NCBI GenBank assembly: GCA_002293825.1 | Contig: DBDW01000012.1 | Span: 25,147-89,146, forward strand | Reading direction: 5' to 3' | Source: Candidatus Magasanikbacteria bacterium UBA922 | GTDB taxonomy: Bacteria; Patescibacteriota; Patescibacteriia; Magasanikbacterales; UBA922 | Length of the DNA stretch: 64,000 nt | Shown here: positions 6,272-51,028 of the stretch, in pieces | How positions within the stretch are numbered: the first letter of the stretch is position 1 | How the letters are laid out: every line of letters begins with the position of its first letter | Position numbers and translations under genes: made by a program | The notes under the pieces: generated by a model | Told to the model about the DNA's origin: nothing | Databases searched by the model: none | What the model saw: the letters and a program-made list of their open reading frames with translations, nothing else

Positions 6272-7270
6272 ATGCAAGAACCCACGCTTCGTGAAGTGTT
6301 TCAGGCTAGTTGGAAATTAACCTGGCGATATAAAGCATTGTGGATATTAGGGTTGTTTGCGTTGTTATTGGGTCAATTGGGAATGTTTGATGTAGTATCA
6401 GGGGTTTTCAAAGGAGCTTCAGAAGAGTCATTACTTGGAATTGGCGAGCATATACGCTATGTATTTTCTCCAAGTACGATACAAGAGGTAGGTACGGTAC
6501 TCAATTATTCTTTTGAATCATGGGGCGCACTTGCGTGGTTATTTGTATTACTATTTGCTATTGGTGCAGGATTGCTCATAGTCGGAGCGATTGCTCAGGG
6601 GGGATTGGTACATGCGGCAGCTCTGTCTATGAAACATGGACTGAAATCAATGGAAAAATTTGAAGAATCATGGCATGCAGGTGCTCGTCATGTGTCTGCG
6701 ATTGTGGTATTGAATATTGTGAGAAAAAGTATTGTGTTTGCACTTTCACTTGTGGTTGCTGCTGCTGCGCTTGCAGCTTCGGTGTACGGAAGCACGCTTT
6801 CAATTGTGATTTTTTTATTCGTATTTATTATCTCAATTTTTGCAGGAATGATTGCGTCAATGCTTACGTTTTATACGGTAGGATATCTTGTAGTCGAAGA
6901 AAAAGATTTATTTGGATCTCTCAAGCATGCGTGGAAGCTCCTTCGGAATCACTGGGTGGTGTCGTGTGAGGTAGGTCTGGTATTGATCGCATTGAATGTA
7001 GTGGTGGTTTTGGCACTTATCGTAGGGATGTATGTACTAGTTGCTCCGAGCTTGGCAATTAATGCATATGGAGCATTGATTGGTGATAGTGGTCTTGCAC
7101 AAATGGGTACTTCAATTGCACTTGTACTCATGCTCGCATATGCACTGATTATTGGTTCTATATTTACCGTTTTTGTGACCACTGCGTGGACGTATTTGTT
7201 TGCAATTATGCATCGATGGGGATTTAGGAGTAGGGTGCATGCATTTTTTGGTAATCTGAAACGATCCTAA
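6272..7270 (+). CDS. hypothetical polytopic membrane protein
   Basis: 332 aa with about 7 predicted TM helices. No motif I can name with confidence. Confidence 0.55.
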   Translation: MQEPTLREVFQASWKLTWRYKALWILGLFALLLGQLGMFDVVSGVFKGASEESLLGIGEHIRYVFSPSTIQEVGTVLNYSFESWGALAWLFVLLFAIGAGLLIVGAIAQGGLVHAAALSMKHGLKSMEKFEESWHAGARHVSAIVVLNIVRKSIVFALSLVVAAAALAASVYGSTLSIVIFLFVFIISIFAGMIASMLTFYTVGYLVVEEKDLFGSLKHAWKLLRNHWVVSCEVGLVLIALNVVVVLALIVGMYVLVAPSLAINAYGALIGDSGLAQMGTSIALVLMLAYALIIGSIFTVFVTTAWTYLFAIMHRWGFRSRVHAFFGNLKRS

Positions 7271-25309: not shown

Positions 25310-25870
25310 ATGAAAATATCGATGTATCTCGCACTTTCTTTGATCATTGTGAGTCTTGTATTGGGTATGGCATTTGGGTATTACCTGACACCTGAATATC
25401 AATCATCAATGTATGAAAAAAATACAATGAGTCTCGGACGTGCAGATCGAACATTTGATTTGCGATATATCAATGCCATGATTGCACATCATCGAGGCGC
25501 AATGCTGCTTGCAGCGCAATTGGCTGAGAATACTACACGACCAGAAATGCAGGCATTGGCACAGAATATTCTTGCAGATGAGCCGAAAGCCATTGCCGAA
25601 TTATATGAATGGAAAAAAGAATGGTATGGCGATACGCGATCAGTCCGTGATCCGGTAGTAGCAAATCTTGGACCATCTGGTGACACCTTTGATTTGAGAT
25701 TTTTGAATGCGATGATTGCTCATCATGAAGAGGGTATTCTCATGACTACTGAAACGAGACAGAAGTCTTCTCGTGCAGAAATATTGGATAATGCTGATGC
25801 AGTGGAGGTGTTTTTGAAAAATGGTATCCAAACATTGCAAGGTTTCAGAGCTGAGTGGTTTAATCTGTGA
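25310..25870 (+). CDS. DUF305-domain protein (copper-resistance associated), membrane-anchored
   Basis: Two repeats of the [16 protein letters not shown] / [16 protein letters not shown] motif typical of DUF305. Confidence 0.8.
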
Positions 25871-28134
25871 TATATATGAGTACACATACATACAAAATTA
25901 CAGGCATGCATTGTGCGAGTTGTGCGTCTGTAATTACCAAAAAATTATCAGCTGTGCCACATGTGCGTTCGGTTTCAGTAAACTATGGTACTGAGAAGGC
26001 AAAAATTGATTTTGATGACACTCATACTTCTCTCGACACATTGAATGGAGTGGTAGGTACATTGGGTTATACGCTTTCTGCGATAGATCACTCTGGTGCG
26101 GCTGAGCCAGAGTCTGTTACTAAAAAAATAGATGAACATGCTGAGCTTAAAAACAAAACTAATTTTATCCTTCCGATTGCATTATTAGTGTTTATACTCA
26201 TGATGTGGGATATTGGTGCGCAGATTTTTACAGGTGTTCCAAATTTTCCGATTCCGATGACATTATTCAATACGATTGGAATGGTATTGGCCACGATCGC
26301 ATTGTTTTGGGTGGGACAGCCATATATGCGTGGGATATTCAGATTTGCTCGATATGGAGTGGCAAATATGGATACACTTATTGGGATTGGGACATTCTCA
26401 GCATATCTGTATAGCATGAGTATCACACTTATTCCTCTGTTTTGGTCGTCACGCATGGTACCAGAATATACGTATTTTGATGTTACGATTGTGGTTATTG
26501 GTTTTATTACATTGGGTAAGTATTTGGAAGCTGTATCAAAGAAAAAGACTGGTGATGCGATTGAAAAACTTCTTAATTTGCAGGCCAAAAATGCTTTGGT
26601 AGTTCGAGAGGGTGTAGAGATTGAGATTCCTGTGAATCAGGTGCAACGTGGCGATATGATTGTGGTAAAACCGGGTGCAAAAATACCAGTTGATGGTGTT
26701 ATTGTTGAGGGTAGTTCTTTTGTTGATGAATCAATGGTAACGGGCGAGCCAATGCCAGTACAGAAAAAAATTGATGATACAGTAGTGTCTGGAACCATTA
26801 ATACCACCGGGTCATTTGTGTTTAGAGCGACAAAGGTGGGGTCTGAAACTTTTCTTGCCCAAATCGTTACGATGATTGAAGAAGCGCAGGGGAGTAAAGC
26901 ACCAATTCAGGCATTGGTCGATAAAATATCATCGGTGTTTGTGCCCACAGTACTCGTGATCGCTGGTATTACCTTTGTAACGTGGTTAAGTGTTGGTTCG
27001 ATATATCTTGGTTTTTCTCAGGCATTTTCATTTGGATTAGTTTCATTTGTGGGAATTTTGGTAATCGCGTGTCCATGTGCGTTGGGACTAGCCACACCCA
27101 CGGCGATTATCGTAGGTGTGGGAAAAGGTGCGGGGGCAGGGATCTTGGTGAAGGATGCTGCAACACTTGAGAAGTTGCATATGGTAGATACAGTGGTCGT
27201 CGATAAAACAGGAACCATTACTCAGGGTAAGCCCACATTGGTGAAGGTGCTCAATTTTTCTCGCATGAGTGATGTGGAATTAATTTCGATTACAGCGTCA
27301 CTGGAAAAAAAGTCTGAACATCCAATCGCACATGCGATTGTGCGTTATGCAGAAGAAGAAAATATTTCTATTTCAGAAGTTTCTGTGTTTGAAAGTGTGC
27401 AGGGGAAAGGTATTAGGGGACGTATCAATGGTACTGAGTATCTTGTGGGTAACAGGATACTCATGAGTGAGCATGGACTTGCCTTTGATCATGTGGCTAT
27501 TGATGAATATACTGCTCAGGGAAAAACACCGGTAATACTTGCTACCGCAGATCAGGTGCTTGGCATCATTATGGTTGCTGATGAAGTAAAACCAGAATCA
27601 AAACAAGCGATTGCAGATCTTCATGCACTAGGTATCACGGTGGTAATGCTTACGGGGGATGATGAGAAGACTGCGCGGTATGTTGCTTCTCTTGTGGGGA
27701 TTGATGATGTGATCGCTCAGGTGCTCCCTCAAGATAAGCGTGAAAAAGTACATACACTTCAGAAAAATGGGAAGGTGGTAGCTATGGCTGGCGACGGAGT
27801 TAATGATGCTCCTGCACTCGCGCAGGCTGATGTAGGTATTGCAATGGGAACGGGAACTGACGTAGCAATTGAATCAGCGGGTATTACGCTATTGGGGGGC
27901 GATATCTCAAAATTGGTTAAAGCAATTCGATTATCAAATATGACCATGCGAGGTATTAGACAAAATTTATTTTGGGCCTTTATCTATAATATCGTAGGTA
28001 TTCCACTTGCAGCTGGAGTGTTTTATCCATTGTTTGGGTGGGTACTCAATCCGGTTTTTGCGGGGTTTGCGATGGCGCTTTCGTCAGTGTCAGTGGTTTC
28101 AAATTCACTACGTATTAAGGCTAAGAAATTATAG
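25867..28134 (+). CDS. copA: copper-translocating P1B-type ATPase
   Basis: N-terminal HMA domain [13 protein letters not shown] motif ([11 protein letters not shown]). DKTGTIT phosphorylation site. GDGVNDAP hinge. Confidence 0.95.
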
Positions 28135-28158
28135 GTATACATATTAAAATTTTTATCT

Positions 28159-29166
28159 ATGAGTACGCATACGTTTCATGTTTCAGGAATGCATTGCGCA
28201 TCGTGTAAAATATTTATCGAGGATACGTTGAATTCTCACGAGTTGGTTCGTGTCGCGCAGGTAGATTTGAAAAAAGAAATTCTTCAGATTGAAACAAGTT
28301 CTACACATTCACCTGCAGAACTTGCAGATATTTTGACAAATGAAGTTGCATCAAATGGATATACTATTTCTGTTGAAAAAACAGGAGAAGGTATCAAAGA
28401 TAGTAATGATTTTTGGAAAGCTTTACCAATTGGACTTGGTGTTCTCGCTCTTTTTTTTCTGGTTCAAAAATCAGGTTTGTTGGATATTGGAGTCGGTGGG
28501 CAGATTACACCGGTTACTGGTTTTTTAATTGGGCTGATTGCTTCGGTATCTAGCTGTCTTGCAGTCGTAGGTGGTCTCGTCTTATCTCTTTCAGCAAATC
28601 TTGCTCAAGGTACTGTTCGAAACGCTAAAATATTGGTACAGTTTCATGTAGCACGTATAGTAAGTTTTGCTATGTTGGGTGGGGTGCTTGGTATGATCGG
28701 CGGTGTGATTGGTATTAATTTTACACTTACCACGATATTGGGAATCATAGCTTCTACTATAATGCTTGTGTTAGGTTTGAATTTATTGGGTGTAATTAAA
28801 AAAAATAATTTGGTTTTTTCTTCTCGTTTTTTTAACTTTTTTACACGCAATAAACGTTCAATCATTGCACCGTGGTTATTGGGTTTTGCAACATTTTTTT
28901 TACCGTGCGGATTTACCCAGTCTATGCAGGTTTCAGCATTGAGCAGTGGCTCATTTTTATCTGGATTGTTAATACTGTTTTCATTTGCATTGGGAACACT
29001 ACCAGTACTAGCGTTTCTTTCATTTGGTTCAGTCTCATTTGCGCGCGGAAATCATGCTTCATTATTTTTCAAATCTGCAGGAGTGGTAGTTATTGGTCTA
29101 GGATTATTTGCACTACTTTCTGGCCTTGCAGCACTTGGAATTATTACTCCGTTATTTAGTATCTAA
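28159..29166 (+). CDS. HMA-domain protein fused to a multi-TM domain with conserved cysteines (DsbD_2/CcdA-like or MerT-like)
   Basis: N-terminal GMHCASC metal-binding domain, then about 6 TM helices carrying Cys in SSCLAVVGG and FLPCGFTQS. Confidence 0.6.
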   Translation: MSTHTFHVSGMHCASCKIFIEDTLNSHELVRVAQVDLKKEILQIETSSTHSPAELADILTNEVASNGYTISVEKTGEGIKDSNDFWKALPIGLGVLALFFLVQKSGLLDIGVGGQITPVTGFLIGLIASVSSCLAVVGGLVLSLSANLAQGTVRNAKILVQFHVARIVSFAMLGGVLGMIGGVIGINFTLTTILGIIASTIMLVLGLNLLGVIKKNNLVFSSRFFNFFTRNKRSIIAPWLLGFATFFLPCGFTQSMQVSALSSGSFLSGLLILFSFALGTLPVLAFLSFGSVSFARGNHASLFFKSAGVVVIGLGLFALLSGLAALGIITPLFSI

Positions 29167-29170
29167 TTGT

Positions 29171-29566
29171 ATGAATAAAACTATTTCAATTGGTATTGCA
29201 CTTGTGTGCGTTGTGGGGATAGGAATCATATTGTTTGGGAAGTTTGAAAACACTACACAATCCTCTGAAATCGTAAGCGGGTCTAATGTTGAAATACGAG
29301 ATGGGGTGCAATATGTAACAATTACGGCGCGTGGTGGATATTTCCCAAAAAACTCTGTTGCAGAAGCAGGTATTCCCACCACATTAATTGTGAAGACAAA
29401 TAATACCTATGATTGTTCATCTGCATTAGTTATTCGATCTTTGGGATATCAGAATATGTTATCTCCGAGCGGGGAAGAGGTGATTGAGGTGGGTGTGCCA
29501 ACGACTGGTAAACTGCAGGGTCTGTGTAGTATGGGGATGTATTCTTTTGCGATTGATTTTCAATGA
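29171..29566 (+). CDS. small secreted cupredoxin-like copper-binding protein (putative)
   Basis: 131 aa. N-terminal TM/signal, a beta-rich body, and C...CSMGMY-type Cys/Met ligands near the C-terminus. Last gene of the copper operon. Confidence 0.45.
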   Translation: MNKTISIGIALVCVVGIGIILFGKFENTTQSSEIVSGSNVEIRDGVQYVTITARGGYFPKNSVAEAGIPTTLIVKTNNTYDCSSALVIRSLGYQNMLSPSGEEVIEVGVPTTGKLQGLCSMGMYSFAIDFQ

Positions 29567-29668: not shown

Positions 29669-30160
29669 GTGTATAGTATGAAACACGCTTCCACTCATTT
29701 TTTGCGAGCAGTAATTTTTGCAGTAGGTATTGGAGTTTTGGCATTATGTATTTTCGCGTTTCCTGGATTGGGTACGGGATGGACCGCTGAGTTTCCGACA
29801 GCACCAAAATCTGGATACGTGGTGATGGCATCATTCTACGCAGCCTCGGTACCGTTTTTTCTCGCGTTGTTTCAGATGTTGAAGTTGTTGAGGTATATTG
29901 ATACTAATAAAGCTTTTTCAGAAGAATCAGTGCGTGCGTTGCAGGCTATTAGTCGGTATGCGATTGCGATGACGGTGGCATTTATGACATATATGCCCGC
30001 AGCATTTCATTTTGCGGAAATTGATGACGCGCCTGGTGTTATTTTATTTGCAGTTGCATTTGCGTGTTCTCCATTGGTAGTTGCGGTAATTGCAGCGGTT
30101 CTCAAAAAATTATTACAAAGTGCTGTAGATATGAAGCATGAACACGATTTAATGGTCTAA
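29669..30160 (+). CDS. DUF2975-family membrane protein
   Basis: 163 aa with 4 TM helices. Immediately followed by a small XRE HTH gene, the classic yozG-type DUF2975/HTH pair. Confidence 0.65.
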   Translation: MYSMKHASTHFLRAVIFAVGIGVLALCIFAFPGLGTGWTAEFPTAPKSGYVVMASFYAASVPFFLALFQMLKLLRYIDTNKAFSEESVRALQAISRYAIAMTVAFMTYMPAAFHFAEIDDAPGVILFAVAFACSPLVVAVIAAVLKKLLQSAVDMKHEHDLMV

Positions 30161-30170
30161 TAGTATTTCT

Positions 30171-30374
30171 ATGTCAATTATTATCAATATTGATGTGATG
30201 CTTGCGAAGCGCAAAATGAGTGTTACTGAACTTACTGATAAAGTAGGAATTACCATGACTAATCTTTCAATTCTCAAAAATGGGAAGGCAAAAGCAATTC
30301 GTTTTTCCACACTTGAAGCGATTTGCAAAGCACTTGATTGTCAGCCTGGAGATATTTTAGAATATAGAACATAA
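30171..30374 (+). CDS. XRE-family HTH transcriptional regulator (YozG-like)
   Basis: 67 aa. LAKRKMSVTELTDKVGITMTNLSILKNGKAKAIRFSTLEAICKALDCQPGDIL: HTH_XRE. Confidence 0.8.
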   Translation: MSIIINIDVMLAKRKMSVTELTDKVGITMTNLSILKNGKAKAIRFSTLEAICKALDCQPGDILEYRT

Positions 30375-30383
30375 ATATTTTGT

Positions 30384-30569
30384 ATGAAAAAATGGTATAA
30401 AAATTATTTGGATGCTCAGAAAAAGGCACAACCAAAATCAGATAATACAACTTCCTTACCGAATAAGCCGGTAACACGTCCCTCGAATACGCATGGGGGT
30501 GCTAAAAAATTTCGTGATCCAGTCGCAGTGGGAAAACGTACACGTTCAAAAACATTTGGTGCGTCTTAG
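30384..30569 (+). CDS. small basic hypothetical protein
   Basis: 61 aa, Lys/Arg-rich. Coding status uncertain. Confidence 0.3.
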   Translation: MKKWYKNYLDAQKKAQPKSDNTTSLPNKPVTRPSNTHGGAKKFRDPVAVGKRTRSKTFGAS

Positions 30570-30656
30570 TTTTTTGATGAGGACACAAGTGCGTGTTTGA
30601 TTGAGTATCTGAAATCAGATATACTCTTGGTATTAATGTATATTCTACACTCATTC

Positions 30657-30810
30657 CCTAACACCTGCTGTATGCAGGATGCCGGTAATCGTGGTAGTGT
30701 TACCCCATACATAGTCATCGGCATTGACGGGGTAACAATTGCTCGATTTTTGGAAAAACAAAAGTGTGTTAAGCTTTTGAAAGACCTCATTGAATATATA
30801 TGTGTTAGGT
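30657..30810 (+). repeat. structured palindromic element (attC-like family member) immediately upstream of the RT operon; candidate ncRNA
   Basis: Bounded by a perfect 8-bp inverted repeat CCTAACAC ... GTGTTAGG. Internal hairpins cctgc-tgtat-gcagg, gttacccc-22nt-ggggtaac and gatgtt-ctgccc-aacatc. Shares the 5' motif GTATGC(A/G)G and the 3' motif GTTAGnT-GATGT with elements at 47189, 47674 and 53459. Confidence 0.55.
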
Positions 30811-30836
30811 AGATGTTCTGCCCAACATCTTAGGGA

Positions 30837-32057
30837 GTGAGTGTATACTGTATGTTTTCAACAATTATATCTGCCAAGAATTTGGAAGGAGCGTATTTGG
30901 ATTTGGTTGAAAAATTTGCCGAAGATGGTAAAGAATTTACATATCATGGTATTGATAACTATACTCTCCTTGACTACGATTTTGATTCACTTGAATTACT
31001 TTCGAGAGTGCGTGACGAATTGATAGAGAAAAAACCTCTTGATCCTGCGCTCTTACTTCACATTCCAAAGAAGCATAATCCTGCAAAGACTCGGGATATT
31101 TTTGTATATACATTGAAAGAGCGAGTAAAAGCTCAGGCATTGTATCGGGTAGTGGTTCCATTGTTTGAACATTATTTTTCTAATCGCCTATTTTCGTATC
31201 GTCCTGGTAGACCACCATCTATTGCGGCGTATCTTTTTGCACGAAGGTATCGTCGATATCATAAGACCGATCACTGTCTCGTCGTAGATCTTCAGAATTA
31301 CTCCAATCTTTTAGACACTACAATTCTATTTGAACAACTAAAGAATGTGATTCCTGATTCTCGTGTTCGTGATCTCCTCAGATTATTTATCGTGAACCCG
31401 CTCTACGAACAAGGGGTGATACGTTCTATGGATCAGGGTGTTGTACAAGGTGTTCCGTTGATTGCATTATTTGCAAATTTATATCTCACGGATCTCGATT
31501 ATCGGTATCAAAAAATGGTGTCTTTCTATATTCGTGTGGGCGACGATTTGGTGCTTGCTGATCAGAATTCAGATACAATCGCACGAGTAGGTGAGCAATT
31601 AAAAGAAGATCTTCATGTGCGAGGACTCGAACTTAATCATGATAAATGGTACAGAGGACCTGCTCGTGGCGATTTTTCCTTTTTAGGATATCGTTTTTCG
31701 GCTGGACGTATCAGACTTGAGGATGGGTATGTGCGCTCGATGGTGCGTACCTGGAATCGATTATTGGTCGATAAACATAAAACAAAATCACAAAAATACG
31801 CACTGTTGGTACGTATTATGCGGCACCCTACACGAAATTTTACGAATCAATTTGAAGAGATGGTTCGAAGTAAACCTCAACTTAATGACAGTGAACAAAT
31901 TAAAGTATTGTCTGAGCGTTTTTTTGCAATTCTTACTGAATTTTATTTTGTTCGCTATACTCCACGTAATCGACGATTGCTCACTCGAGTGATTCGTGAT
32001 TTGGGGATACAATCACTGTATCATGTATATACACGTTTTCATTATGAACGATCCTGA
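30837..32057 (+). CDS. reverse transcriptase, standalone, non-retron, non-intron; VGDD catalytic box
   Basis: 406 aa. RT0 GIDNYT. RT1 LLHIPKKHNPAKTRDIFV. RT2 FSYRPGRPPSIAA. RT3/A LVVDLQNYSNLLD. RT4/B' QGVVQGVPLIALFANLYLTDLD. RT5/C FYIRVGDDLVLA. RT6 GLELNHDKW. RT7 FSFLGYRF. No VTG triplet, no maturase/X domain, no intron domain V downstream. Confidence 0.85.
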   Translation: MSVYCMFSTIISAKNLEGAYLDLVEKFAEDGKEFTYHGIDNYTLLDYDFDSLELLSRVRDELIEKKPLDPALLLHIPKKHNPAKTRDIFVYTLKERVKAQALYRVVVPLFEHYFSNRLFSYRPGRPPSIAAYLFARRYRRYHKTDHCLVVDLQNYSNLLDTTILFEQLKNVIPDSRVRDLLRLFIVNPLYEQGVIRSMDQGVVQGVPLIALFANLYLTDLDYRYQKMVSFYIRVGDDLVLADQNSDTIARVGEQLKEDLHVRGLELNHDKWYRGPARGDFSFLGYRFSAGRIRLEDGYVRSMVRTWNRLLVDKHKTKSQKYALLVRIMRHPTRNFTNQFEEMVRSKPQLNDSEQIKVLSERFFAILTEFYFVRYTPRNRRLLTRVIRDLGIQSLYHVYTRFHYERS

Positions 32058-33786
32058 TATCATGTCTCATACACGTATTCATATACAAGCACGATTATTG
32101 CGTCGTGCAAAAAAAAGGATCTACGCATGGCGTACGATTGTGTTGACTCGTTTTCACTATCGTCATGTGCTACATTTTTTGAAAACATATCGTGCGTTTG
32201 TATATGGACTATGTGCATTATTGATAACCCAGCTACTGGTAGAGACTGCGCTTATTATCATAGGGAGGCACTATAGTTATTTTGATACATCGTCTGTTGT
32301 GTATTCATATGTTGGATGGATTATCGCGGTACTTAGCAGTGTTTTTTTGTTGGTTTCTTTTTTTGCGCTGAAGTATGAACGAACACTGATAGTCTATTTT
32401 GCGAATCATATTCGAAAGAGATTGTTTGCTTCATATATATACGGACACGCGTCTTCATCGCGCGCACGTGCTCGATTGATTGCACAAATTTCATATCATG
32501 TGCCATTGGTTTCTCTCGGAGTTTCACATGTATTTTTTGGTGTATTGAGAATTGTGTTGTATGGTGGAGTGGTGGGAATCCTTGCGTATGTAGGAAATTT
32601 TTCTGTGTGGATATATAGTGGAGTGTATGTACTGGGGTGTGGTGTAGTTTTTCTTTTCGCATATTTCTTTTCTCGATACTGGACTTCCCAAGAAGTTACG
32701 TATTATTCGAGGATTATGCAGGGAATTGAGATTGATGCGTCTGATACAGATTTTATTACTATGTTTGGACAAAAAGAACGCATTCTTACTATGTTTGATC
32801 GATTGGTCGAATTTGATTCTTTTTTTCGCATACGACGAGATGTGTTTATGGGAATTGGGTATGCAGTCGTATTTGTACTGGTGCTCATATGTTCGATAGT
32901 GGTGCATGCACATCCTCAGATACTCAATTCTGTCATCACATCTCCATATAGCGCGGAGCGTATAGTAGTAATCTTTTTGTTTGTGTATATTTCTCGTGCA
33001 TTGGTGCAGGCATATCGCGCTGGTTTGTATATTTTTCCTGCTCGACTTGGACTTTTTTTAACACTTCGATCTACACGCACATCACCAGTACATAAGAAAG
33101 ATATTTCTTTGTCGGGAAAATCGATCCGTTTTCATGCTCGCAAGACAAAATTATTTTTTGAAAGTCCCTATTATCGACGTATGGATTTTTTGTTTCATCC
33201 AGGAGATCGTATTCTCATTCAGGGAGACAATCTTTCCGGCAAGACTTCGTTTGCGCGAATGTGTGCGGGTATTTCTGCATACACGCCACGAGCATTTACG
33301 ATTACAGTAGGTGAGGAACGACTTGATTTTTTCCAGTGGCACGCGCGGGTAGCGCGTGAGGTATACGTGTATGACCCGTCTATCAGAACTGAACGAAGTT
33401 TGATTGAATATATTGTGGGAAAGGTAAAAGAAGATATTTCTGCTGAAGAGTTTGCATCAGTGATTGCACATATACACAATTATCCGTCAATCGTAGCACT
33501 GGTAGCGCCTGATGGGAATTACAATGTTTCAGCACGGCACGTGTTGTCGAATCCGATTCAGGCATGTGCGCTTCATATACTGCACTGTATTGTATCAAAG
33601 CCATCGTTTATTATTATTGATAATTTTTGGATTGATCTCAATTATCCGCGTATTCGTGATATGATGCAGATACTTGATACAGCGGTACCATCATCGATTA
33701 TTCTCGTTTGCTCTCGCGTGTCCAATGAGTACTTTTCGTATACACAACACTATGTCTTCGCGAATACGATCACACGTCTCCTCTAA
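32044..33786 (+). CDS. 6-TM membrane domain fused to a degenerate ABC-type nucleotide-binding domain
   Basis: The start overlaps the RT stop by about 14 nt (MNDPDIMSH...). About 6 TM helices, then Walker A GDNLSGKTS. Signature-like LSNPIQ in place of LSGGQ. Walker B FIIIDN (catalytic Glu replaced by Asn). H-loop His absent (ILVCSRVSN). Confidence 0.7.
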   Translation: MNDPDIMSHTRIHIQARLLRRAKKRIYAWRTIVLTRFHYRHVLHFLKTYRAFVYGLCALLITQLLVETALIIIGRHYSYFDTSSVVYSYVGWIIAVLSSVFLLVSFFALKYERTLIVYFANHIRKRLFASYIYGHASSSRARARLIAQISYHVPLVSLGVSHVFFGVLRIVLYGGVVGILAYVGNFSVWIYSGVYVLGCGVVFLFAYFFSRYWTSQEVTYYSRIMQGIEIDASDTDFITMFGQKERILTMFDRLVEFDSFFRIRRDVFMGIGYAVVFVLVLICSIVVHAHPQILNSVITSPYSAERIVVIFLFVYISRALVQAYRAGLYIFPARLGLFLTLRSTRTSPVHKKDISLSGKSIRFHARKTKLFFESPYYRRMDFLFHPGDRILIQGDNLSGKTSFARMCAGISAYTPRAFTITVGEERLDFFQWHARVAREVYVYDPSIRTERSLIEYIVGKVKEDISAEEFASVIAHIHNYPSIVALVAPDGNYNVSARHVLSNPIQACALHILHCIVSKPSFIIIDNFWIDLNYPRIRDMMQILDTAVPSSIILVCSRVSNEYFSYTQHYVFANTITRLL

Positions 33787-34945
33787 GGTGAATATACTTG
33801 TATGGATACTTCCAGTGTGCGGACTGCTCGTAGTGACTGCATTATTTGTGTTTTTTGTTTCTAAAGGTTCTGTGAGAATTTCTCAGTCGGTATATCAGGG
33901 TGAAATAATTAAGTCCGAAGAGCCGTTTTCTGGAGAAGTGTATGCGAATACAGAATTTGAGGGAACTATCTTTTCCGATCTCATCGTTTCCCTGATCGAT
34001 CAGGCGACGACACGTATTGAGATTGCAGTGTATTCAATGAATCATCCGCGTATTCATGATGCATTGTATCGAGCTTCAGATCGGGGAGTGTTGGTGACAC
34101 TTCTCCTAAGTGCGTCTCGATCACAGACACATTCAATTGTTTTTTCTGATTTTCCTGATCAGATTACACGTATTGAGTATGATCCTCAGCGTGGATACAT
34201 GCATCATAAGTTTTTAATTGTCGATCGAGGACTTTCGAATGAAGTGCTTGTGTTTGGGTCATATAATTTTACAGAATTACAAGAGCGGTATGATGCAAGT
34301 TTTGTACTGAAAACTACGGATACACAAATTATTTCTATATTTGGTAGAGAATTTGATCGACTGGTGCGCAATGTGGGAACGAGCACGACTCATCTGTCTG
34401 ATTCTATGCCATCGATGACTCGCATAGAATATCCAGAAGGTGATTTGGAGATTTGGTTTTCTCCACCGGTATCACTTGGTACAGGTATACGTGAGCGTGT
34501 ACTCAATCTGATTACTCATGCGACAGAACGTATTCGTGTGATGATGTGGAGTATTACCGATACTCATGTCGCACGTGCACTGGTCTCTGCTGCTCGAGCA
34601 GGAAAAAGAGTGGAAATATTGACCGATGATTCGACGATGTTTAATACACATTCGGTGATTCCTGATCTGCATGAGGAAAAAGAAACACACACATTGAACA
34701 TGTTTGAAATTTTTACGGATGCAAAAAGGACAGAAGAGGTGTCTCCGGATATGGATACAGGATTTAATCCATTTTTACACCATCACACGACGATTATTGA
34801 TAGTAGAATTGTCCTGTTTGGAACGAGTAATTGGAGTGCAAATGGTTTTTATTATAACAATGAAGCCACTATGATCAGTACGATTCCATATCTAATTTCT
34901 TCATTTGAACATATTTTTGAGGATAATATGGCGCGATCAAAATGA
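33752..34945 (+). CDS. membrane-anchored phospholipase D-family protein with two HKD-type motifs, the second degenerate
   Basis: Overlaps the upstream gene end. N-terminal TM helix. First motif HHKFLIVDRGLSNEVLVFGSYNFT (HxKx4Dx6GSxN). Second motif HHHTTIIDSRIVLFGTSNWS (Lys replaced by His/Thr). Confidence 0.75.
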   Translation: MSSRIRSHVSSKVNILVWILPVCGLLVVTALFVFFVSKGSVRISQSVYQGEIIKSEEPFSGEVYANTEFEGTIFSDLIVSLIDQATTRIEIAVYSMNHPRIHDALYRASDRGVLVTLLLSASRSQTHSIVFSDFPDQITRIEYDPQRGYMHHKFLIVDRGLSNEVLVFGSYNFTELQERYDASFVLKTTDTQIISIFGREFDRLVRNVGTSTTHLSDSMPSMTRIEYPEGDLEIWFSPPVSLGTGIRERVLNLITHATERIRVMMWSITDTHVARALVSAARAGKRVEILTDDSTMFNTHSVIPDLHEEKETHTLNMFEIFTDAKRTEEVSPDMDTGFNPFLHHHTTIIDSRIVLFGTSNWSANGFYYNNEATMISTIPYLISSFEHIFEDNMARSK

Positions 34946-35390: not shown

Positions 35391-35942
35391 ATGCATCTGA
35401 TACTCATTTTAGGGCCCATGAAAAGTGGAAAATCATTTGACTTGATTAGTCATTTTTCTCCGCTCAAGTATACACACACATCATTTGGATTATTTCAGCC
35501 GGTACGCAATGTGCGAGATAATAAGATTGAATCTCGAAGCGGATTATTTCTTGATGCAGTGAAAATTCAGTCACTTTCTGAAATTGTAGATCGCGAATAT
35601 TCAGTCGTGGGGATTGATGAAGTGCATATGTTTGATCCTCGTGATGCGTATTATGTGGGCGTATTGTTGTCACGAGGTGTAGAGGTAATTATTTCTGGAC
35701 TCGATACTGATTATCGTGGTGAAATGTTTCAGATGGTAAAAAAATTGTTTGAGCTCGGACCAAAAGAGGTGCGGTACAAACGAGCGGTGTGTAATGAATG
35801 TAAGAATTTTTCTGCAACACATACCCAAGTGTACAGCTCTCACAAACCGCTTACCGAAGGGATGCCCCCAGTGATTCCTGATGATGGAACTTTTACCTAT
35901 GAGCCGGTATGCCGCACGTGTTTTGTCTCGAGCAATCTCTAA
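35391..35942 (+). CDS. tdk: thymidine kinase
   Basis: P-loop GPMKSGKS. IDEVHMF. C-terminal zinc ribbon CNEC...CRTC. Confidence 0.9.
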   Translation: MHLILILGPMKSGKSFDLISHFSPLKYTHTSFGLFQPVRNVRDNKIESRSGLFLDAVKIQSLSEIVDREYSVVGIDEVHMFDPRDAYYVGVLLSRGVEVIISGLDTDYRGEMFQMVKKLFELGPKEVRYKRAVCNECKNFSATHTQVYSSHKPLTEGMPPVIPDDGTFTYEPVCRTCFVSSNL

Positions 35943-47990: not shown

Positions 47991-50625
47991 ATTGTTTCAA
48001 AAAGGCAATAATTATATTTAAATCTTCAGTTTTCAGTGGGTTTTCATTTGAGTTCTGTGTTGCATGTGTGCCACGATTACTCAGATCATTCCAGTAACCC
48101 TCTAGCTTTTTAATATCTTCTTCTTTCTTATCAATTTTTTTCAGATTTTCCCAAGGTACACCAACTCCACGAAGTCGATCTTTCATTAAACCAGTTTTTA
48201 ACAAAATTTTCTCGTCAATATAATGCTCAATTGCTGATTTTAAGTAACCAGAAACACAACTCAAAGAGTAATCGCTTTTCATTTCATTTTCCGCTTTCTC
48301 AATAAAATAGCTACAGGATTCATTCTGTGCTTCAAATATTCTGCCTGTTTTATCTTTTGACTCTCTGTCTACCTTGTAGGTGTAAACATGACAACCTTTG
48401 CCATTGCAACCTTTCTGTGTGTAATTTTTGCAAATATGATGAGTTTTATTGGTTGTTTCATTTTTAAGACTGTTTCCCCAATAAATCAACGAATCGTAAA
48501 ACAGTTTGTTATGCGTGAAAATTATAATCTGCCTATCTGATGACAGTTGTAAAAGTTTTTTAGCTAAAAAATCAGCTACTTCGTGATCAACACTGGTAAC
48601 AGGATCATCAAAAACAATTGGACATATATCATTTTGGCTTTCAATCTCTGCGAGAAATAATGCAAGCCCGACAGCCTTTTGTTCGCCATCGCTTAAAATT
48701 GCACGAACATCGTTTCCTAAAATTTTAAGCCTTGTACGAACAGATCCTTTGCCTGCCCCAGTCTTTTCAAGGCTGACTTCAATATTTTTACCCAAGGCTT
48801 TTAGTTCGTCTTCAAAAGATTGCCTTATTGAGTCCGTCAAAAGCTCATCGTGTGCCTTTGATCCCAACTCTGTAATTCCTCTAGTGCTTATACTTTGTTT
48901 TACGCTTTCATATTTTTGAACAGACTTGCAAATTGCAAAATGGCTTTCTATTTTTGTCTTCCATTTTGAAATATTTTGTTTGTCTTCAAGCTTGTTAATC
49001 TCAGTTAAATAACCGCTTATTTTCTGTGTTTTTTGAGTATCGGATTGCTGTAAATCATCTAGCTCTTTTTGCTTTTTTTCTGATAGTTCCTTTAGTTTTT
49101 CATCGGTATTCAATAGGTCTAGCGCATACTTTTCAGCGGTAGTCGCCTTGTCTTTTAACGCCCTTTCTATATCTTCTTTTTTCTTTGCAGCCACTACTAA
49201 CACTTGTTCAATTAATGTCTTATAATCTTGCTTCTGGTCGTTCTGTATCTCGGTTAAAGTTTTTTTCAAATTTTCTGAAAGAGTGAAATCCGTGACCAAA
49301 TCATCAATTTCTTTCTTCAGCTCGGTAATTTTATCAACAGAATCTTTGAAATTTTGTTGCGACTGATCATCCAAATATTGAGCGTATGCCTGAACAAGTT
49401 TTATGGCCTCCTCGCCTAACGGCTGGTGGCAATAGATACATTTTTCCTCATGATTAAAGACGGTCTGGTCAATTTTTGCGACATATTCTTTCGCCGATTC
49501 AATAAAAGTTTGCCATTCCTCACTGTCTTGAGCGGGTATATTTTTTAAAACTTCAAATTGTTTTACTCGTTCATCCCTTATTTTCTTTTTCTCTAAATAA
49601 TCCTTTATGGCAGAAAAAGTATTTGCTGTTAATTTCTCAAGGTTTGTTTTAACGTCAGATAAATGATTGTAAAGATCATCAATTTCTTTCTTTTCTTGAT
49701 TCAATACTTTTTTACTATCTTCCGTAGTGTTTTTTTCAAGGGAAGTCTTGTCTATTTTAAATTGAGCTAGTTGTGTTGCATCCTCCTCGGTAAAAAGTTT
49801 GTTAGTATCTAACAGTTGTTCTTCCTGTTCTGTTAATGAAGTTTTGCCAAGTAATGTTTTTAGATCATCAGAGTGAATAATATCGATCAATGTCTGTAGT
49901 TCGGGAGACGAGTCTTGCTTTTGTTGTTTCGCTTGATTTAACCTCTCTTTAAATTCATCAATAATTGTTGCGATTACTTGAAAAAAATTTAGCCCGAGCG
50001 GTTCTATGTTCACCGAGCTTTCGCGCTCATCTAAGAAAATTGGTAAATATTCTGTATCAAAAACTTTGATTTGACTGAATGGTGCAATGCCTCGGACCAA
50101 TTTATTATCCCATTTGAAAGTATTTTGTGTTTTATCATCTAATAAATAATCTACATGAACCTCTAATCCATCACCCTGATTATGGATGTTATCTAAAATA
50201 TCTTTAGACTTGATACCGCCAGCAAGCTCATTGATAATTCTGAAATAACCACTTTTCCCAGTGCCGTTAAGTCCAAAAATTATAGTACATGCAGGACTTA
50301 ATGTTATTGATTGGTTTGGAATAAGAGCATTAACGCCTTTTATATGAGTGATTTTTTGTAAAGAAAGTTTTTGTTTTTTTGAATTGTCTAGGGTTTCAGC
50401 TTCTACAATATCCTCTTGTTTTATCTCTTCATTATTTTCCTGATCATCCGTAATCTGATTTTCCTTTAGAAGCTCTTGAAATATTGCATTTTTTTCGGCA
50501 TCCGAAATTTTTGCATTGGCATCTATTACTTTTTGAATCAACAAAACAAGCCATTTTGGCGTGTCGCTTTTGGCTTTGTATTCAAGCAGGTAGTCCTTAG
50601 CATGTGATTTTGTTGAGTTACTCAT
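47989..50625 (-). CDS. ABC-type ATPase with a long coiled-coil insertion (AAA_13 / RloC-PrrC-like architecture) plus a Cys-containing C-terminal domain; candidate defence or abortive-infection protein
   Basis: 878 aa. N-terminal Walker A IIFGLNGTGKSGYF. About 450 aa of predicted coiled coil. Signature-like ILSDGEQKAV. Walker B PIVFDDPVTSVD. H-loop IIFTHN. About 190-aa C-terminal domain with CKNYTQKGCNGKGCH. AT-rich relative to the core genome. Confidence 0.7.
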   Translation of the reverse strand: MSNSTKSHAKDYLLEYKAKSDTPKWLVLLIQKVIDANAKISDAEKNAIFQELLKENQITDDQENNEEIKQEDIVEAETLDNSKKQKLSLQKITHIKGVNALIPNQSITLSPACTIIFGLNGTGKSGYFRIINELAGGIKSKDILDNIHNQGDGLEVHVDYLLDDKTQNTFKWDNKLVRGIAPFSQIKVFDTEYLPIFLDERESSVNIEPLGLNFFQVIATIIDEFKERLNQAKQQKQDSSPELQTLIDIIHSDDLKTLLGKTSLTEQEEQLLDTNKLFTEEDATQLAQFKIDKTSLEKNTTEDSKKVLNQEKKEIDDLYNHLSDVKTNLEKLTANTFSAIKDYLEKKKIRDERVKQFEVLKNIPAQDSEEWQTFIESAKEYVAKIDQTVFNHEEKCIYCHQPLGEEAIKLVQAYAQYLDDQSQQNFKDSVDKITELKKEIDDLVTDFTLSENLKKTLTEIQNDQKQDYKTLIEQVLVVAAKKKEDIERALKDKATTAEKYALDLLNTDEKLKELSEKKQKELDDLQQSDTQKTQKISGYLTEINKLEDKQNISKWKTKIESHFAICKSVQKYESVKQSISTRGITELGSKAHDELLTDSIRQSFEDELKALGKNIEVSLEKTGAGKGSVRTRLKILGNDVRAILSDGEQKAVGLALFLAEIESQNDICPIVFDDPVTSVDHEVADFLAKKLLQLSSDRQIIIFTHNKLFYDSLIYWGNSLKNETTNKTHHICKNYTQKGCNGKGCHVYTYKVDRESKDKTGRIFEAQNESCSYFIEKAENEMKSDYSLSCVSGYLKSAIEHYIDEKILLKTGLMKDRLRGVGVPWENLKKIDKKEEDIKKLEGYWNDLSNRGTHATQNSNENPLKTEDLNIIIAFLKQ

Positions 50626-51028
50626 CTTTTAGCTTTTTGTTAATATCTGAAAATGTTTTGCTGAAGTCTTTTTTTAACTCATGCTCCCAAACCCGGATCA
50701 CGTGCCAGCCTTCTTTTTTATAATGCCGATTCACCTCCTTATCACGTTCTTTATTCCGTGCGATTTTCTTTTCCCAAAACTCGGTTCTTGTTGCCGGCAT
50801 GGAGCCGTGTTTTTTGCAACCATGTCAGAAACAAGAATCCACGAAAATTACGGTTTTGTATTTCGGTAAAACAATGTCGGGCTTTCCGAAATACTTTGTT
50901 GAGTTTTTGAGATAACGATAGCCTTCTTTCCATAACGCTTTGCGGAGTAAGATCTCAATTTTGCTGTCCTTGTTTCTTACTTTGGACATGATGTCACTGC
51001 GTTTTGTTTTGGAAAAAATATCGGCCAT
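50618..51028 (-). pseudogene. vsr: very-short-patch-repair endonuclease gene interrupted by an in-frame TGA at the conserved Trp
   Basis: Two track ORFs sit in the same frame. The first ends ...KYKTVIFVDSCF, then a stop, then HGCKKHGS, then MPATRTEFWEKKIARNKERD...GWHVIRVWEHE. Together they reconstruct the Vsr motif FVxGCFWHGCxKH except TGA replaces TGG. Confidence 0.7.

Follow-up and report, generated by a model that had tools for sequence, protein, structure and literature searches.

Among the closest described counterparts of the locus analysed here are the class 2 UG/Abi systems, in which reverse transcriptases (RTs) occur with upstream ncRNAs and membrane partners; DRT10, for instance, consists of an ncRNA, a SLATT protein and an RT (bioRxiv 10.64898/2026.04.29.721553; PMC12632851), with an ncRNA described as four stem-loops set on a central stem (PMC12632851). 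In UG26, a further group of this class (Mestre et al. 2022), a Vsr-like endonuclease is co-located with 9 of 35 members, and the UG26 paper, searched as text, yielded neither 'PLD' nor 'ABC' (PMC9226505). Retrons combine an msr-msd RNA, an RT and an effector, and some of these effectors are membrane proteins.

In the window, the whole 64,000-nt stretch of DNA analysed here, four linked parts lie on the forward strand at 30646-34945: a structured RNA, an RT, a pseudo-ABC half-transporter and a PLD protein (Table 1). The tightly coupled three-gene operon of the original prediction is borne out, as the ORFs share one orientation and overlap their neighbours, the RT and middle genes by 14 nt (about 14 nt had been estimated, and the overlap is also 14 nt in loci L001 and L003) and the middle and PLD genes by 35 nt. 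Conservation of the neighbours across genomes had been set in advance as a check, and the three genes are co-localized, in the order RT, pseudo-ABC, PLD, in every one of the 64 related loci whose downstream sequence reaches far enough. This order is retained down to 32% RT identity (the farthest members are at 33–34%), and the three proteins co-diverge among related loci, their identities co-varying with r 0.87–0.94. Along with the folding z-score and covariation of the RNA, the constant gene order makes the locus more than a chance juxtaposition: it is one conserved gene module of an RT, an upstream folded RNA, a dead ABC-like membrane protein and an anchored PLD, and its four parts are co-inherited.

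The hosts of the module are ultra-small Patescibacteria/CPR bacteria. A scan of 185,579 species genomes found 61 loci with the module, and two divergent copies occur in the same genome in the pairs L021 and L033, L026 and L055, L039 and L057, and L058 and L060. The low locus count and the divergent double copies point to an accessory character, in support of the explanation that we prefer. As originally supposed, the combination of RT, pseudo-ABC protein and PLD is undescribed in the literature searched, PADLOC v2 and Rfam 15.

Table 1. Coordinates of the module and its elements in the window.
Feature	Position	Strand	Remarks
Promoter-like site, TTGATT-17-TATACT	30597..30625	+	weak consensus match; ~20 nt 5' of RNA element
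Structured non-coding RNA/leader, ~200 nt	30646..30845	+	closing helix P1, hairpins P2-P5, pseudoknot; from folding, covariance model, covariation
P1 5' strand (TACACTCATTCCCTAA)	30646..30661	+	pairs with 30830-30845
P2 hairpin (CCTGC-loop-GCAGG)	30664..30678	+	helix 2, 97.8% paired
Pseudoknot 5' strand, ATGCCG	30679..30684	+	directly 3' of P2; pairs with CGGCAT at 30719-30724
P3, long three-part hairpin	30688..30747	+	helices 4-7; pseudoknot 3' strand formed by apical loop, 30719-30724
P4 hairpin	30759..30779	+	variable in length and sequence between loci; outside modelled part
Conserved motif CCTCATTGAATATATA (consensus CCTCRTTGGATTTAAT)	30785..30800	+	unpaired in consensus model; conservation from structure-guided alignment
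P5 hairpin	30800..30828	+	directly 5' of P1 3' strand; helix 8, double changes at 10/11 pairs
P1 3' strand (TTAGGGAGTGAGTGTA)	30830..30845	+	contains RT ribosome-binding site GGGAG; ends 6 nt 5' of RT ATG
RT, 401 aa	30852..32057	+	group II intron-like fold, UG26-neighbouring lineage; catalytic RVGDD
Pseudo-ABC half-transporter, 580 aa	32044..33786	+	six TM helices (type IV exporter fold) and degenerate NBD
Tandem PLD (Nuc/NucT/Zucchini-like), 397 aa	33752..34945	+	signal-anchored; motif 1 HxK(x)4D, motif 2 HxH(x)4D

Our preferred explanation, to which we assign a probability of roughly 45%, is an undescribed RT–ncRNA system tied to a membrane effector or transducer, with the four parts working together. 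The upstream RNA would bind the RT, probably as a template or scaffold like the RNAs of the class 2 UG/Abi systems DRT2, DRT9 and DRT10 and of retrons, and the cytoplasmic RT–RNA complex would make a defined cDNA. Signalling would presumably run from there to the membrane, where the dead ABC-fold protein would read the state of the complex or its cDNA through its pseudo-nucleotide-binding domains in the cytoplasm. The output would be the membrane pair of this protein and the membrane-anchored PLD-family phosphodiesterase, to which it is translationally coupled and with which it is probably complexed: when triggered, most plausibly by phage infection or some other nucleic-acid insult, the pair may damage the envelope or arrest the cell, or it may switch on the nuclease at the outer face of the membrane.

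The RT (Pfam RVT_1, E 4.9e-10; start ATG set by homolog alignment) carries a YIRVGDD motif in which Y227, R229, G231, D232 and D233 are invariant among 45 homologs, and its active site is intact. With its AF2 model (pLDDT 93.9) as the query, Foldseek places GsI-IIC RT first (TM 0.74–0.80 over the whole protein), followed by DRT9, G2L4 and DGR RT; GsI-IIC RT is the best solved-structure match by sequence too (E 2.9e-16), and beyond the group II intron RTs no structure matches better than DRT9. With the group II intron RTs and G2L4 the RT shares RT0-type N-terminal and thumb elements, but it has a VGDD rather than a YADD/YIDD active site, as well as dedicated membrane partners. The claim that maturase and intron RNA are lacking stands in part: there is no Pfam GIIM match and Rfam-type RNA searches found no group II intron RNA domains, but a thumb (X-equivalent) domain is recognizable by fold.

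In profile searches the RT stays below every family threshold, and its best matches in PADLOC, NCBIfam and Pfam are confined to the RT core at ~110 bits. It does not appear to fall inside a described class with the same partners, an outcome that would have spoken against the original proposal. RT_UG26 is the best class-specific PADLOC match (109 bits, E 4.8e-32), but it covers model positions 45–312 of 398 only and scores about the same as the generic RT and group II RT models. In an exhaustive search the nearest out-of-family proteins are UG26-like over the full length, and from sequence and profile searches UG26-like class 2 UG/Abi RTs appear to be the nearest relatives. DRT10/UG17 (formerly G2L3) resembles the module in its free-standing group II-like RT (81 bits for the module RT against the UG17 model), in an obligatory membrane partner co-evolving with the RT, and in a dedicated structured ncRNA of similar architecture in the same operon (PMC12632851). 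However, the module has a 6-TM ABC-exporter-fold pseudo-ATPase and an anchored PLD instead of a 2-TM SLATT, the order is RNA–RT–partners as opposed to RNA–SLATT–RT, the RNA is pseudoknotted and matches no known family, and the hosts of the module are Patescibacteria. Retrons likewise have an RNA directly upstream of the RT, closed by a long inverted-repeat helix, and a tripartite logic with effector genes, but their partner types differ and the module RNA lacks a conserved priming G beside the closing helix, the junction after the P1 5' strand reading AAAAC or ACAC.

The multi-hairpin element that had been placed upstream of the RT is real, covarying and pseudoknotted, although it is longer than the predicted ~155 nt and does not begin at 30657. 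The region folds with z = -5.7, and a covariance model built from a different clade only has its sole match in the whole window at 30649-30842 (46 bits, E 2e-7). Cells of the alignment expected to pair do so in 94.4% of cases versus 71.9% for shuffles, compensatory (double) changes are seen at 46 of the 49 pairs, and the structure scores 0.72 against ~0.1 for slid controls. The pseudoknot, which was absent from the model that produced the alignment, has double changes at 6/6 pairs and 97.8% of its cells paired, with clade variants GATATTA/TAATATC, GATATCA/TGATATC, GGTATTA/TAATACC, GGCATTA/TAATGCC and GGTGTTA/TAACACC. An equivalent of P1, a helix of at least 12 bp with clade-specific sequence, is found in nearly all loci. 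The RNA matches no family in Rfam 15, and it is specific to this RT: in an RNA-first metagenome search all six full-length matches have the RT within ~10 nt downstream, and that search turned the element up only in front of this RT. That the conserved unpaired motif might act as the template is speculation. The promoter in front of the element is tentative, as promoter-like sites in the region are no more numerous than expected from shuffling.

The middle protein has six long TM helices followed by an NBD (AF2 pLDDT 78.8), and its sequence is as first described: in the window protein Walker A (G-x4-GKT) is intact, Walker B reads IIIDN with Asn for Glu, the signature is LSNPIQ and the H-loop His is missing. 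Foldseek ranks MsbA, TAP, PCAT1 and TM287/288 at the top over ~575 columns, with the same order of 6 TM and NBD, although sequence identity to these type IV exporters is 13–15%; Pfam ABC_tran scores 14.6 against a threshold of 25. The protein has the fold of an ABC exporter, and its ATPase is degenerate. Walker B reads D-N (or D-A, N-E, E-H) in 60+ loci and is never D-E, and the family differs from both type IV exporters and regulatory or degenerate ABC proteins in lacking the catalytic Glu, LSGGQ and the H-loop. The proposal that ATP is bound without hydrolysis fits the window protein, but several lineages of the family have lost Walker A as well. Nucleotide binding may therefore not be essential to the family and a nucleotide-dependent switch would not be general, which counts against our preferred explanation.

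The PLD protein has a single N-terminal TM helix and two PLDc_2 matches (E 1.8e-38), in keeping with the anchored tandem protein originally proposed, except that its second motif is not HxK but H-x-H-x4-D, a Lys-to-His change that is invariant in the family. The nearest relatives of each half are nucleases of the NucT, Nuc and Zucchini types, and DrmC of DISARM is matched as well; Nuc, NucT and MitoPLD (Zucchini) typically carry an N-terminal anchor or signal peptide. Unlike these single-HKD nucleases, the module PLD has two domains in one chain and invariably accompanies the RT module, and it scores far below the NucT (64 vs 211–351) and DrmC (43 vs 133) cutoffs. Over 45 homologs the N-terminal tail is basic (K+R 229 vs 106) and a single TM helix follows, so the catalytic domains are predicted to lie outside the cell. 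Such a topology, which also counts against our preferred explanation, is a poor fit to an enzyme that acts in the cytoplasm to destroy the DNA of phage or host, and the nuclease effector of classical cytoplasmic type is thus unlikely.

An outward-facing PLD is also what would be expected of surface nucleic-acid housekeeping, an unlikely alternative that nevertheless deserves weight. The anchored PLD would cut environmental or host DNA or RNA for uptake or nucleotide salvage in hosts that are auxotrophic episymbionts, the ABC-fold protein would anchor or regulate it, and the RT and RNA would be accessory, for example in repair or in the processing of imported RNA. The kinship of the PLD halves agrees with this, given that NucT of Helicobacter functions in transformation and purine salvage, as does the genomic context. 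The module is flanked by genes for housekeeping functions, pilins, surface proteins, sigma factors and metal handling, with type IV pilin-like genes frequent and a thymidine kinase in the window clade; around ~24 loci and the window there are no recognisable defence genes, beside the module neither defence nor mobile-element genes are enriched, and synteny is stable within clades. This context counts against our preferred explanation, and the defence role suggested originally is left to analogy, plausible but unproven. However, these genomes are rich in pilin genes, so that their adjacency may be due to chance. Nor does this reading explain why the coupling to an RT, itself provided with a dedicated RNA, is so strict, and a core salvage function would not typically show so sparse a distribution with some divergent double copies.

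Somewhat less probable again is that the RNA is only a cis-regulatory leader controlling translation or termination of the operon, either as a riboswitch or as a site of RT autoregulation comparable to DIVa of group II introns, while the RT uses other templates. The proteins of group II introns bind DIVa at the start codon of their own gene, and in the window, as in most Falkow/Magasanik-type loci, the P1 3' strand includes the RT ribosome-binding site; sequestration of this site by P1, seen in many loci, would be expected of a pure leader too, and counts against our preferred explanation. Additionally, another clade has terminator-like hairpins between the element and the RT ATG, and tandem copies, known for some riboswitches, are found in L019 and L029. 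If the element were a metabolite riboswitch, however, one would expect to find it ahead of other genes as well, so that its occurrence with this RT only in the RNA-first search argues against a leader. In L019 an orphan copy, behind which come a truncated RT start (ATG TTT CGC TAG) and the copy's own terminator-like hairpin, nevertheless keeps its structure, and in L017 the RNA is 2 kb from the RT, with two pilin genes between. Both cases, like the intervening hairpins, fit a discrete RNA rather than a leader alone. Autoregulation would moreover be compatible with a template role, neither excluding the other.

RT-coupled export is a long shot. In this scheme an ssDNA or RNP product would pass through the ABC-fold protein to the outside, where the PLD would trim or transfer it, as the translationally coupled, geometric chain from cytoplasmic RT through transmembrane exporter fold to predicted outside PLD might suggest. 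Type IV exporters are not known to pass nucleic acids, and no energy source is evident, given the dead ATPase and the loss of the P-loop in some lineages. The precedent is a proposal, as relayed in a later preprint, that RT-derived DNA leaves through membrane partners of the SLATT type (Burroughs et al. 2015, cited in bioRxiv 10.64898/2026.04.29.721553).

[quoted passage not shown]

Two details of the annotation concern feature boundaries: the last base of the conserved unpaired motif, 30800, is shared with the coordinates of P5, and the PLD gene has an alternative start, an ATG at 33725.

The three genes downstream of the structured RNA are co-oriented and overlap one another (table below, with starts refined against homologs), and no source annotation exists for the proteins of the window's own module. 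The original prediction, that a reverse transcriptase (RT), an ABC-like protein encoded by the middle gene (MID) and a PLD-family protein (PLD) are linked as neighbours across genomes, is borne out: the order RT-MID-PLD is kept in 64 of the 64 genome and metagenome loci that extend 3 kb or more beyond the RT, and the same order is found in the most divergent members (RT identity 33–34%). A scan of 185,579 species genomes (one genome per species) with a single RT sequence returned no loci, and a rescan with an alignment-based profile returned 61. Identities to the window's proteins, on average 45% for RT, 34% for MID and 39% for PLD, are correlated among the three (r 0.87–0.94), and homology searches with MID and with PLD gave matches that all fall within the module's own MID and PLD families. 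Four genomes each carry two divergent copies of the module.

Close relatives of the RT number about 90 at 90% clustering and are almost all about 401 aa long; those that are named belong to Falkowbacteria, Magasanikbacteria or the 'Patescibacteria group'. Many of the metagenome-assembled genomes with the module (loci L005–L060) are labelled 'uncultured Gammaproteobacteria bacterium', and that of L062 'Flavobacteriaceae', with close relatives that are named Patescibacteria lineages. These labels look like placeholders or binning errors, and we infer that the mislabelled genomes are Patescibacteria, because their gene content and named relatives indicate so. MID is split or frameshifted at five related loci (L007, L014, L030, L043 and L055), which represent pseudogenes or assembly errors.

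Positions of the module and of its surroundings in the window
Feature	Position	Strand	Remarks
Metal-handling cluster	25867-29566	+	P-type copper ATPase (by inspection), HMA-DsbD_2 membrane protein, cupredoxin-like protein
DUF2975 membrane protein, then 67-aa HTH_26 (Cro/C1-type) regulator	29669-30374	+	
61-aa very basic ORF (MKKWYKNYLDAQKK...)	30384-30569	+	between HTH_26 gene and RNA element; may be gene or not
Upstream RNA, covariance model match	30649-30842	+	46 bits, E 2e-7; single match in 64 kb
Pseudoknot strands	ATGCCG 30679-30684 with CGGCAT 30719-30724	+	covaries, at least 6 different sequence pairs
RT	30852-32057	+	401 aa; GGGAG before ATG
MID	32044-33786	+	580 aa; overlap with RT 14 nt
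PLD	33752-34945	+	397 aa; overlap with MID 35 nt; alternative ATG 33725 chosen by some gene callers
118-aa unknown protein			between PLD and thymidine kinase
Thymidine kinase	35391-35942	+	about 450 nt downstream of PLD
ECF-type sigma factor, class I amidotransferase, ABC ATPase (by sequence motifs)			further downstream

The RT is recognised by Pfam (RVT_1), and its catalytic residues, D147, Y227, R229, G231, D232 and D233 (YIRVGDD), K266, and L279-G280 (FLGY), are invariant. Its AF2 model (pLDDT 93.9) superposes over the whole length on the GsI-IIC group II intron RT (TM 0.74–0.80), which is also the best match by sequence among solved structures (E 2.9e-16); DRT9, G2L4 and a DGR RT are the next structural matches. 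Class-specific profiles match the RT core alone, at similar modest scores: 109 bits for RT_UG26 of PADLOC (positions 45–312 of 398), 85 for RT-Cas1, 81 for UG17 and 57 for DRT9, beside 117 for a generic RT profile. The group II RT profile TIGR04416 gives 108.1 bits (positions 18–283 of 353), well short of its cutoff of 300. When 1.84 billion representatives were searched exhaustively with a profile, a compact family of about 45 full-length members with at least 230 bits emerged, followed by a gap. The nearest outsiders are RTs of 437–472 aa and double-RT proteins of ~850 aa, the best PADLOC match of which is RT_UG26 over its full length (positions 30–397). Further out come RT-Cas1, a fusion of RT and PrimPol (TOTE-type AEP), and one group II RT. 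Taken together, these profile scores place the RT as a probable unclassified lineage beside the UG26-like class 2 UG/Abi RTs, which are close to the group II/CRISPR RTs. The ~850-aa outsiders P0200, P0202 and P0206 have their two RT domains in tandem and show weak GIIM matches.

Membership of the group II intron, retron, UG17, UG26, UG28/DRT9 and CRISPR-RT classes was considered and rejected, as the matches are confined to the core and far below member level. No group II intron ribozyme domains were found by Rfam to flank the RT, either in the window or in a scan of 30400–31000, and MID overlaps the RT stop. Pfam GIIM gives no match to a maturase domain; the C-terminal helical domain is included in the whole-length superposition on the GsI-IIC RT. 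As for retrons, NF038233 gives 21 bits (cutoff 235), the best PADLOC retron model (RT_IX) scores 22.9 bits, and the VTG triplet of retron RTs is absent from the translated RT. Set beside msr-msd RNA, with its flanking inverted repeats and conserved branching G, the upstream RNA has a long closing helix, and the junction after the 5' strand of this helix reads AAAAC or ACAC, with no conserved G. UG38, a CPR-associated group (PMC9226505), is absent from the RT's best 25 of 37 PADLOC matches. UG26 itself is a group of 35 members, nine of them with a co-located Vsr-like endonuclease, for which the prediction of a defence role was inconclusive; the text describing it contains neither 'PLD' nor 'ABC' (PMC9226505). 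In PADLOC v2 no single defence system is matched by all components, the RT and PLD giving partial matches from different systems. The original prediction that the RT, with these partners, falls in no described class agrees with the profile searches.

The 281 nt before the RT fold much better than shuffled sequences (z = -5.7). Aligning four distant upstream regions by MAFFT alone was uninformative. A search for long-range complementarity revealed a closing helix (P1) of 12–28 bp in nearly every locus. The helix encloses a region of 160–310 nt ending 0–40 nt before the RT ATG and differs in sequence among clades. The consensus fold comprises P1, the hairpins P2, P3 and P5, and a variable region in which a further hairpin (P4) is usual in single-sequence folds; compensatory changes affect 24 of 27 pairs in one alignment and 31 of 43 in another. 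With 17 Falkowbacteria-type sequences as its sole input, a covariance model, to which the other clades were aligned, recovers the RNA at 45 loci, that of the window among them. We preferred this alignment to a MAFFT alignment of 30 elements, which shifted the window clade by one column in P1. Among the 46 sequences so aligned, 94.4% of cells are paired versus 71.9% in shuffles, double changes occur in 46 of 49 pairs, and the covariation score drops from 0.72 to about 0.1 when partners are slid by 1–3 columns. Six or seven bases 3' of P2 pair with the apical loop of P3 in a pseudoknot that is absent from the alignment model, yet double changes are seen in all six of its pairs, with 97.8% of cells paired. 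Rfam 15 at gathering thresholds reports two tRNAs in the whole window and no match to the element, and scanning 30400–31000 with E-values up to 10 gave nothing relevant. The upstream element is a new structured RNA. At one related locus (L060:6749-6979) its variable region contains a run of short repeats: AAACTAAACTGAACTAAACTGAACTAAACTAAACTAAAT.

The AF2 model of MID (pLDDT 78.8) matches MsbA, TAP, PCAT1, TM287/288, BmrCD and PglK over ~575 columns in Foldseek, at 13–15% identity and with E ~1e-13 for MsbA, TAP and PCAT1. Judging from this full-length match of the model, MID is by predicted fold a type IV ABC exporter half-transporter, with a 6-TM domain and an NBD. By sequence, ABC_tran of Pfam is sub-threshold (14.6, cutoff 25), and the only PADLOC match is mad8 (E 0.046). 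The window's MID keeps Walker A (GDNLSGKT), has LSNPIQ in place of LSGGQ and IIIDN as Walker B, and lacks an H-loop His. In more than 60 homologs Walker B is D-N in nearly all and D-A, N-E or E-H in a few, and D-E occurs in none; at Walker A most of them have GK[ST] and one clade has SGRS, and the motif is unrecognisable in L038, L061/L062, L063, L115 and L116. Shortly after Walker B, W529 and D531 show no variation in a 27-sequence alignment. MID is a long-standing pseudo-ATPase and no recent pseudogene. A role as an active pump is unlikely; MID more plausibly acts as a scaffold, a sensor or a gated conduit.

PLD matches PLDc_2 in two stretches (131.8 bits, cutoff 27), and each half most resembles single-domain nucleases, namely MitoPLD/Zucchini, NucT and Nuc. 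The protein falls below the cutoffs of the NucT models (54–64 bits versus 211–351) and of the DISARM DrmC model (43 bits versus 133). Motif 1 is canonical (H151-x-K153-x4-D158); motif 2 reads H343-x-H345-x4-D350, with His for Lys in every family member. The chain begins with a short, strongly basic tail, after which comes a single hydrophobic helix, and across 45 homologs the 15 residues on either side of this helix contain 229 K+R on the N-side versus 106 on the C-side. Given the basic N-side and the positive-inside rule, the catalytic domains of PLD are predicted to lie outside the membrane.

We propose, with a probability of roughly 0.45, that these components form one pathway from the RNA to the membrane. 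The RT would bind the upstream RNA and make cDNA, the pseudo-NBDs of the ABC-fold protein would read the RT-RNA/cDNA state, and the membrane pair of ABC-fold protein and PLD would be the output, which could be envelope damage of the abortive-infection type, control of a surface nuclease, or export. The proposal is made by analogy, and the closest functional analogues are the class 2 UG/Abi systems. DRT10 (UG17) consists of an ncRNA, a SLATT membrane protein and an RT that makes repeat cDNA from the ncRNA; control of the membrane effector by this cDNA is its authors' proposal (PMC12632851; bioRxiv 10.64898/2026.04.29.721553). The DRT10 ncRNA is described as a central stem that bears four stem-loops (PMC12632851), an architecture much like that of the RNA of the module. 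The latter covaries, is RT-specific and, by the same analogy, may be bound by the RT. The module differs from DRT10 in its modest UG17 score and in its neighbouring genes, none of which matches SLATT in PADLOC or Pfam. For a role in conflict speak the restriction to 61 loci in the 185,579 species genomes, the paralogous copies in some genomes and the wide divergence; the housekeeping context and the predicted outside-facing PLD speak against it.

Neither the module nor its RNA is described in PADLOC v2, Pfam, NCBIfam, Rfam 15 or the literature searched, and literature on the combination of RT, ABC-like protein and PLD and on newer DRT numbers yielded nothing (DRT11 is UG5). What is new is the RT lineage, its RNA, the two partner proteins and the predicted topology; in kind, the module belongs with the known systems of RT, ncRNA and effector. 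Retrons, DRT2, DRT9 and DRT10 are RT-plus-ncRNA systems, each of which brought to light a new way of making and using DNA, and some are now tools. To these the module adds a new and well-defined pair of RNA and RT, in which the RT model is of high confidence and the RNA covaries and is pseudoknotted, and two types of partner unreported with RTs in the libraries and literature searched: an ABC exporter fold devoid of catalysis and a putative PLD nuclease predicted to be outside. It occurs in Patescibacteria, about whose immunity and handling of nucleic acids little is known. Should the parts work as proposed, the module would show how a cytoplasmic product of reverse transcription is coupled to a membrane-spanning output, and its compact operon (4.3 kb) opens this to a direct test by heterologous expression.

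Of the alternatives, salvage or uptake of nucleic acids at the surface fares best, and is itself unlikely. For it speak the nuclease-like halves and the predicted outside position of PLD; against it speaks the strict coupling to an RT with its own RNA. The neighbourhood of the module in the window is ordinary. Thymidine kinase (cluster c15 of the flanking proteins) is also found downstream in L006, L009 and L010, and in a distant clade membrane-anchored proteins of ~200 aa are encoded just downstream of PLD (12 loci, cluster c6); in L004 this protein matches Cupredoxin_1. Flanking genes are stable within clades and different between clades; partly by inspection, they encode pilin-like, giant surface, small membrane and cupredoxin-like proteins, a sigma/anti-sigma-like pair, and an HlyD-like protein adjoining an ABC ATPase. 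Searches of 150 flanking ORFs with PADLOC and Pfam found no enrichment of defence systems and gave generic helicase and ABC matches alone.

Slightly less likely again is the reading in which the upstream RNA is a cis-regulator only. The ribosome-binding site of the RT lies, in the window, within the 3' strand of P1. This differs from the deep clade of the L004 type, in which a terminator-like hairpin lies within the last ~30 nt before the RT ATG; L004, L037, L040, L042, L044 and L048 have a GC-rich hairpin and T-run between the RNA element and this ATG. An autoregulatory role in addition to a partner role is possible. Metagenome contigs were also searched from the RNA side, with a 19-base pattern taken from the element. 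This returned 47 stretches, most of them estimated to be chance matches; the covariance model confirmed six at full length and two more that are truncated at the end of the locus. All six full-length elements have an RT within about 10 nt downstream, and MID and PLD as well where the contig continues; the RNA is therefore specific to the module's RT, at least in the clade that the pattern targets. A general riboswitch is unlikely, since in this search the element is found exclusively with this RT. Additional or displaced copies of the RNA occur at three loci. In L019 an extra, structurally intact copy (6526-6760, 132.7 bits) is followed by ATG TTT CGC TAG, a truncated RT start, and by a terminator-like hairpin (GAGCCTGTTCAGGCTC and a T-run); in L029 a second copy (6633-6806, 90 bits) stands in tandem directly upstream of the RT-proximal one (6818-6995); and in L017 the only copy (4815-4979) and the RT are 2 kb apart, separated by two pilin-like genes. 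The L017 arrangement may be a genuine rearrangement or an artefact of assembly caused by repeats. These copies suggest a discrete RNA that is more than a translational leader. Just upstream of the extra copy in L019 (~6400-6500) there is an apparent 3' end of a tRNA gene, and L017:3797-7003 holds a tandem array of three near-identical type IV pilin-like genes, with the RNA element after the first.

A more far-reaching version of the proposed pathway, to which we attach little weight, is a reverse-transcription-coupled trans-membrane device, in which a defined DNA, made by the RT-RNA complex in the cytoplasm, would be passed to the dead ABC-fold protein and would be exported or would signal to the extracellular PLD. 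If this were true, an RT product would act at or beyond the surface of an episymbiotic bacterium, and candidate uses there would be host attachment, processing of extracellular DNA or exclusion of incoming nucleic acids. Plain RT-coupled export is improbable, to a marginally greater degree; the exporter fold of MID speaks for it and the degenerate motifs of its NBD speak against it.

That the module is the remnant of a mobile element is very improbable, given the RT's scores far below the group II and retron cutoffs and the absence of group II intron RNA domains from the Rfam matches. Viral carriage was also considered and rejected, as the lone IMG/VR contig (L117:1502-5719) offers no support for it: a 1405-aa ORF directly upstream of the RT and a 479-aa ORF upstream match nothing in Pfam, and the context of the former resembles the giant-protein context (cluster c5) of chromosomal loci. 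Elsewhere in the window, positions 48001-51000 stand out from the remainder by their low G+C content (0.34–0.36) and negative GC skew.
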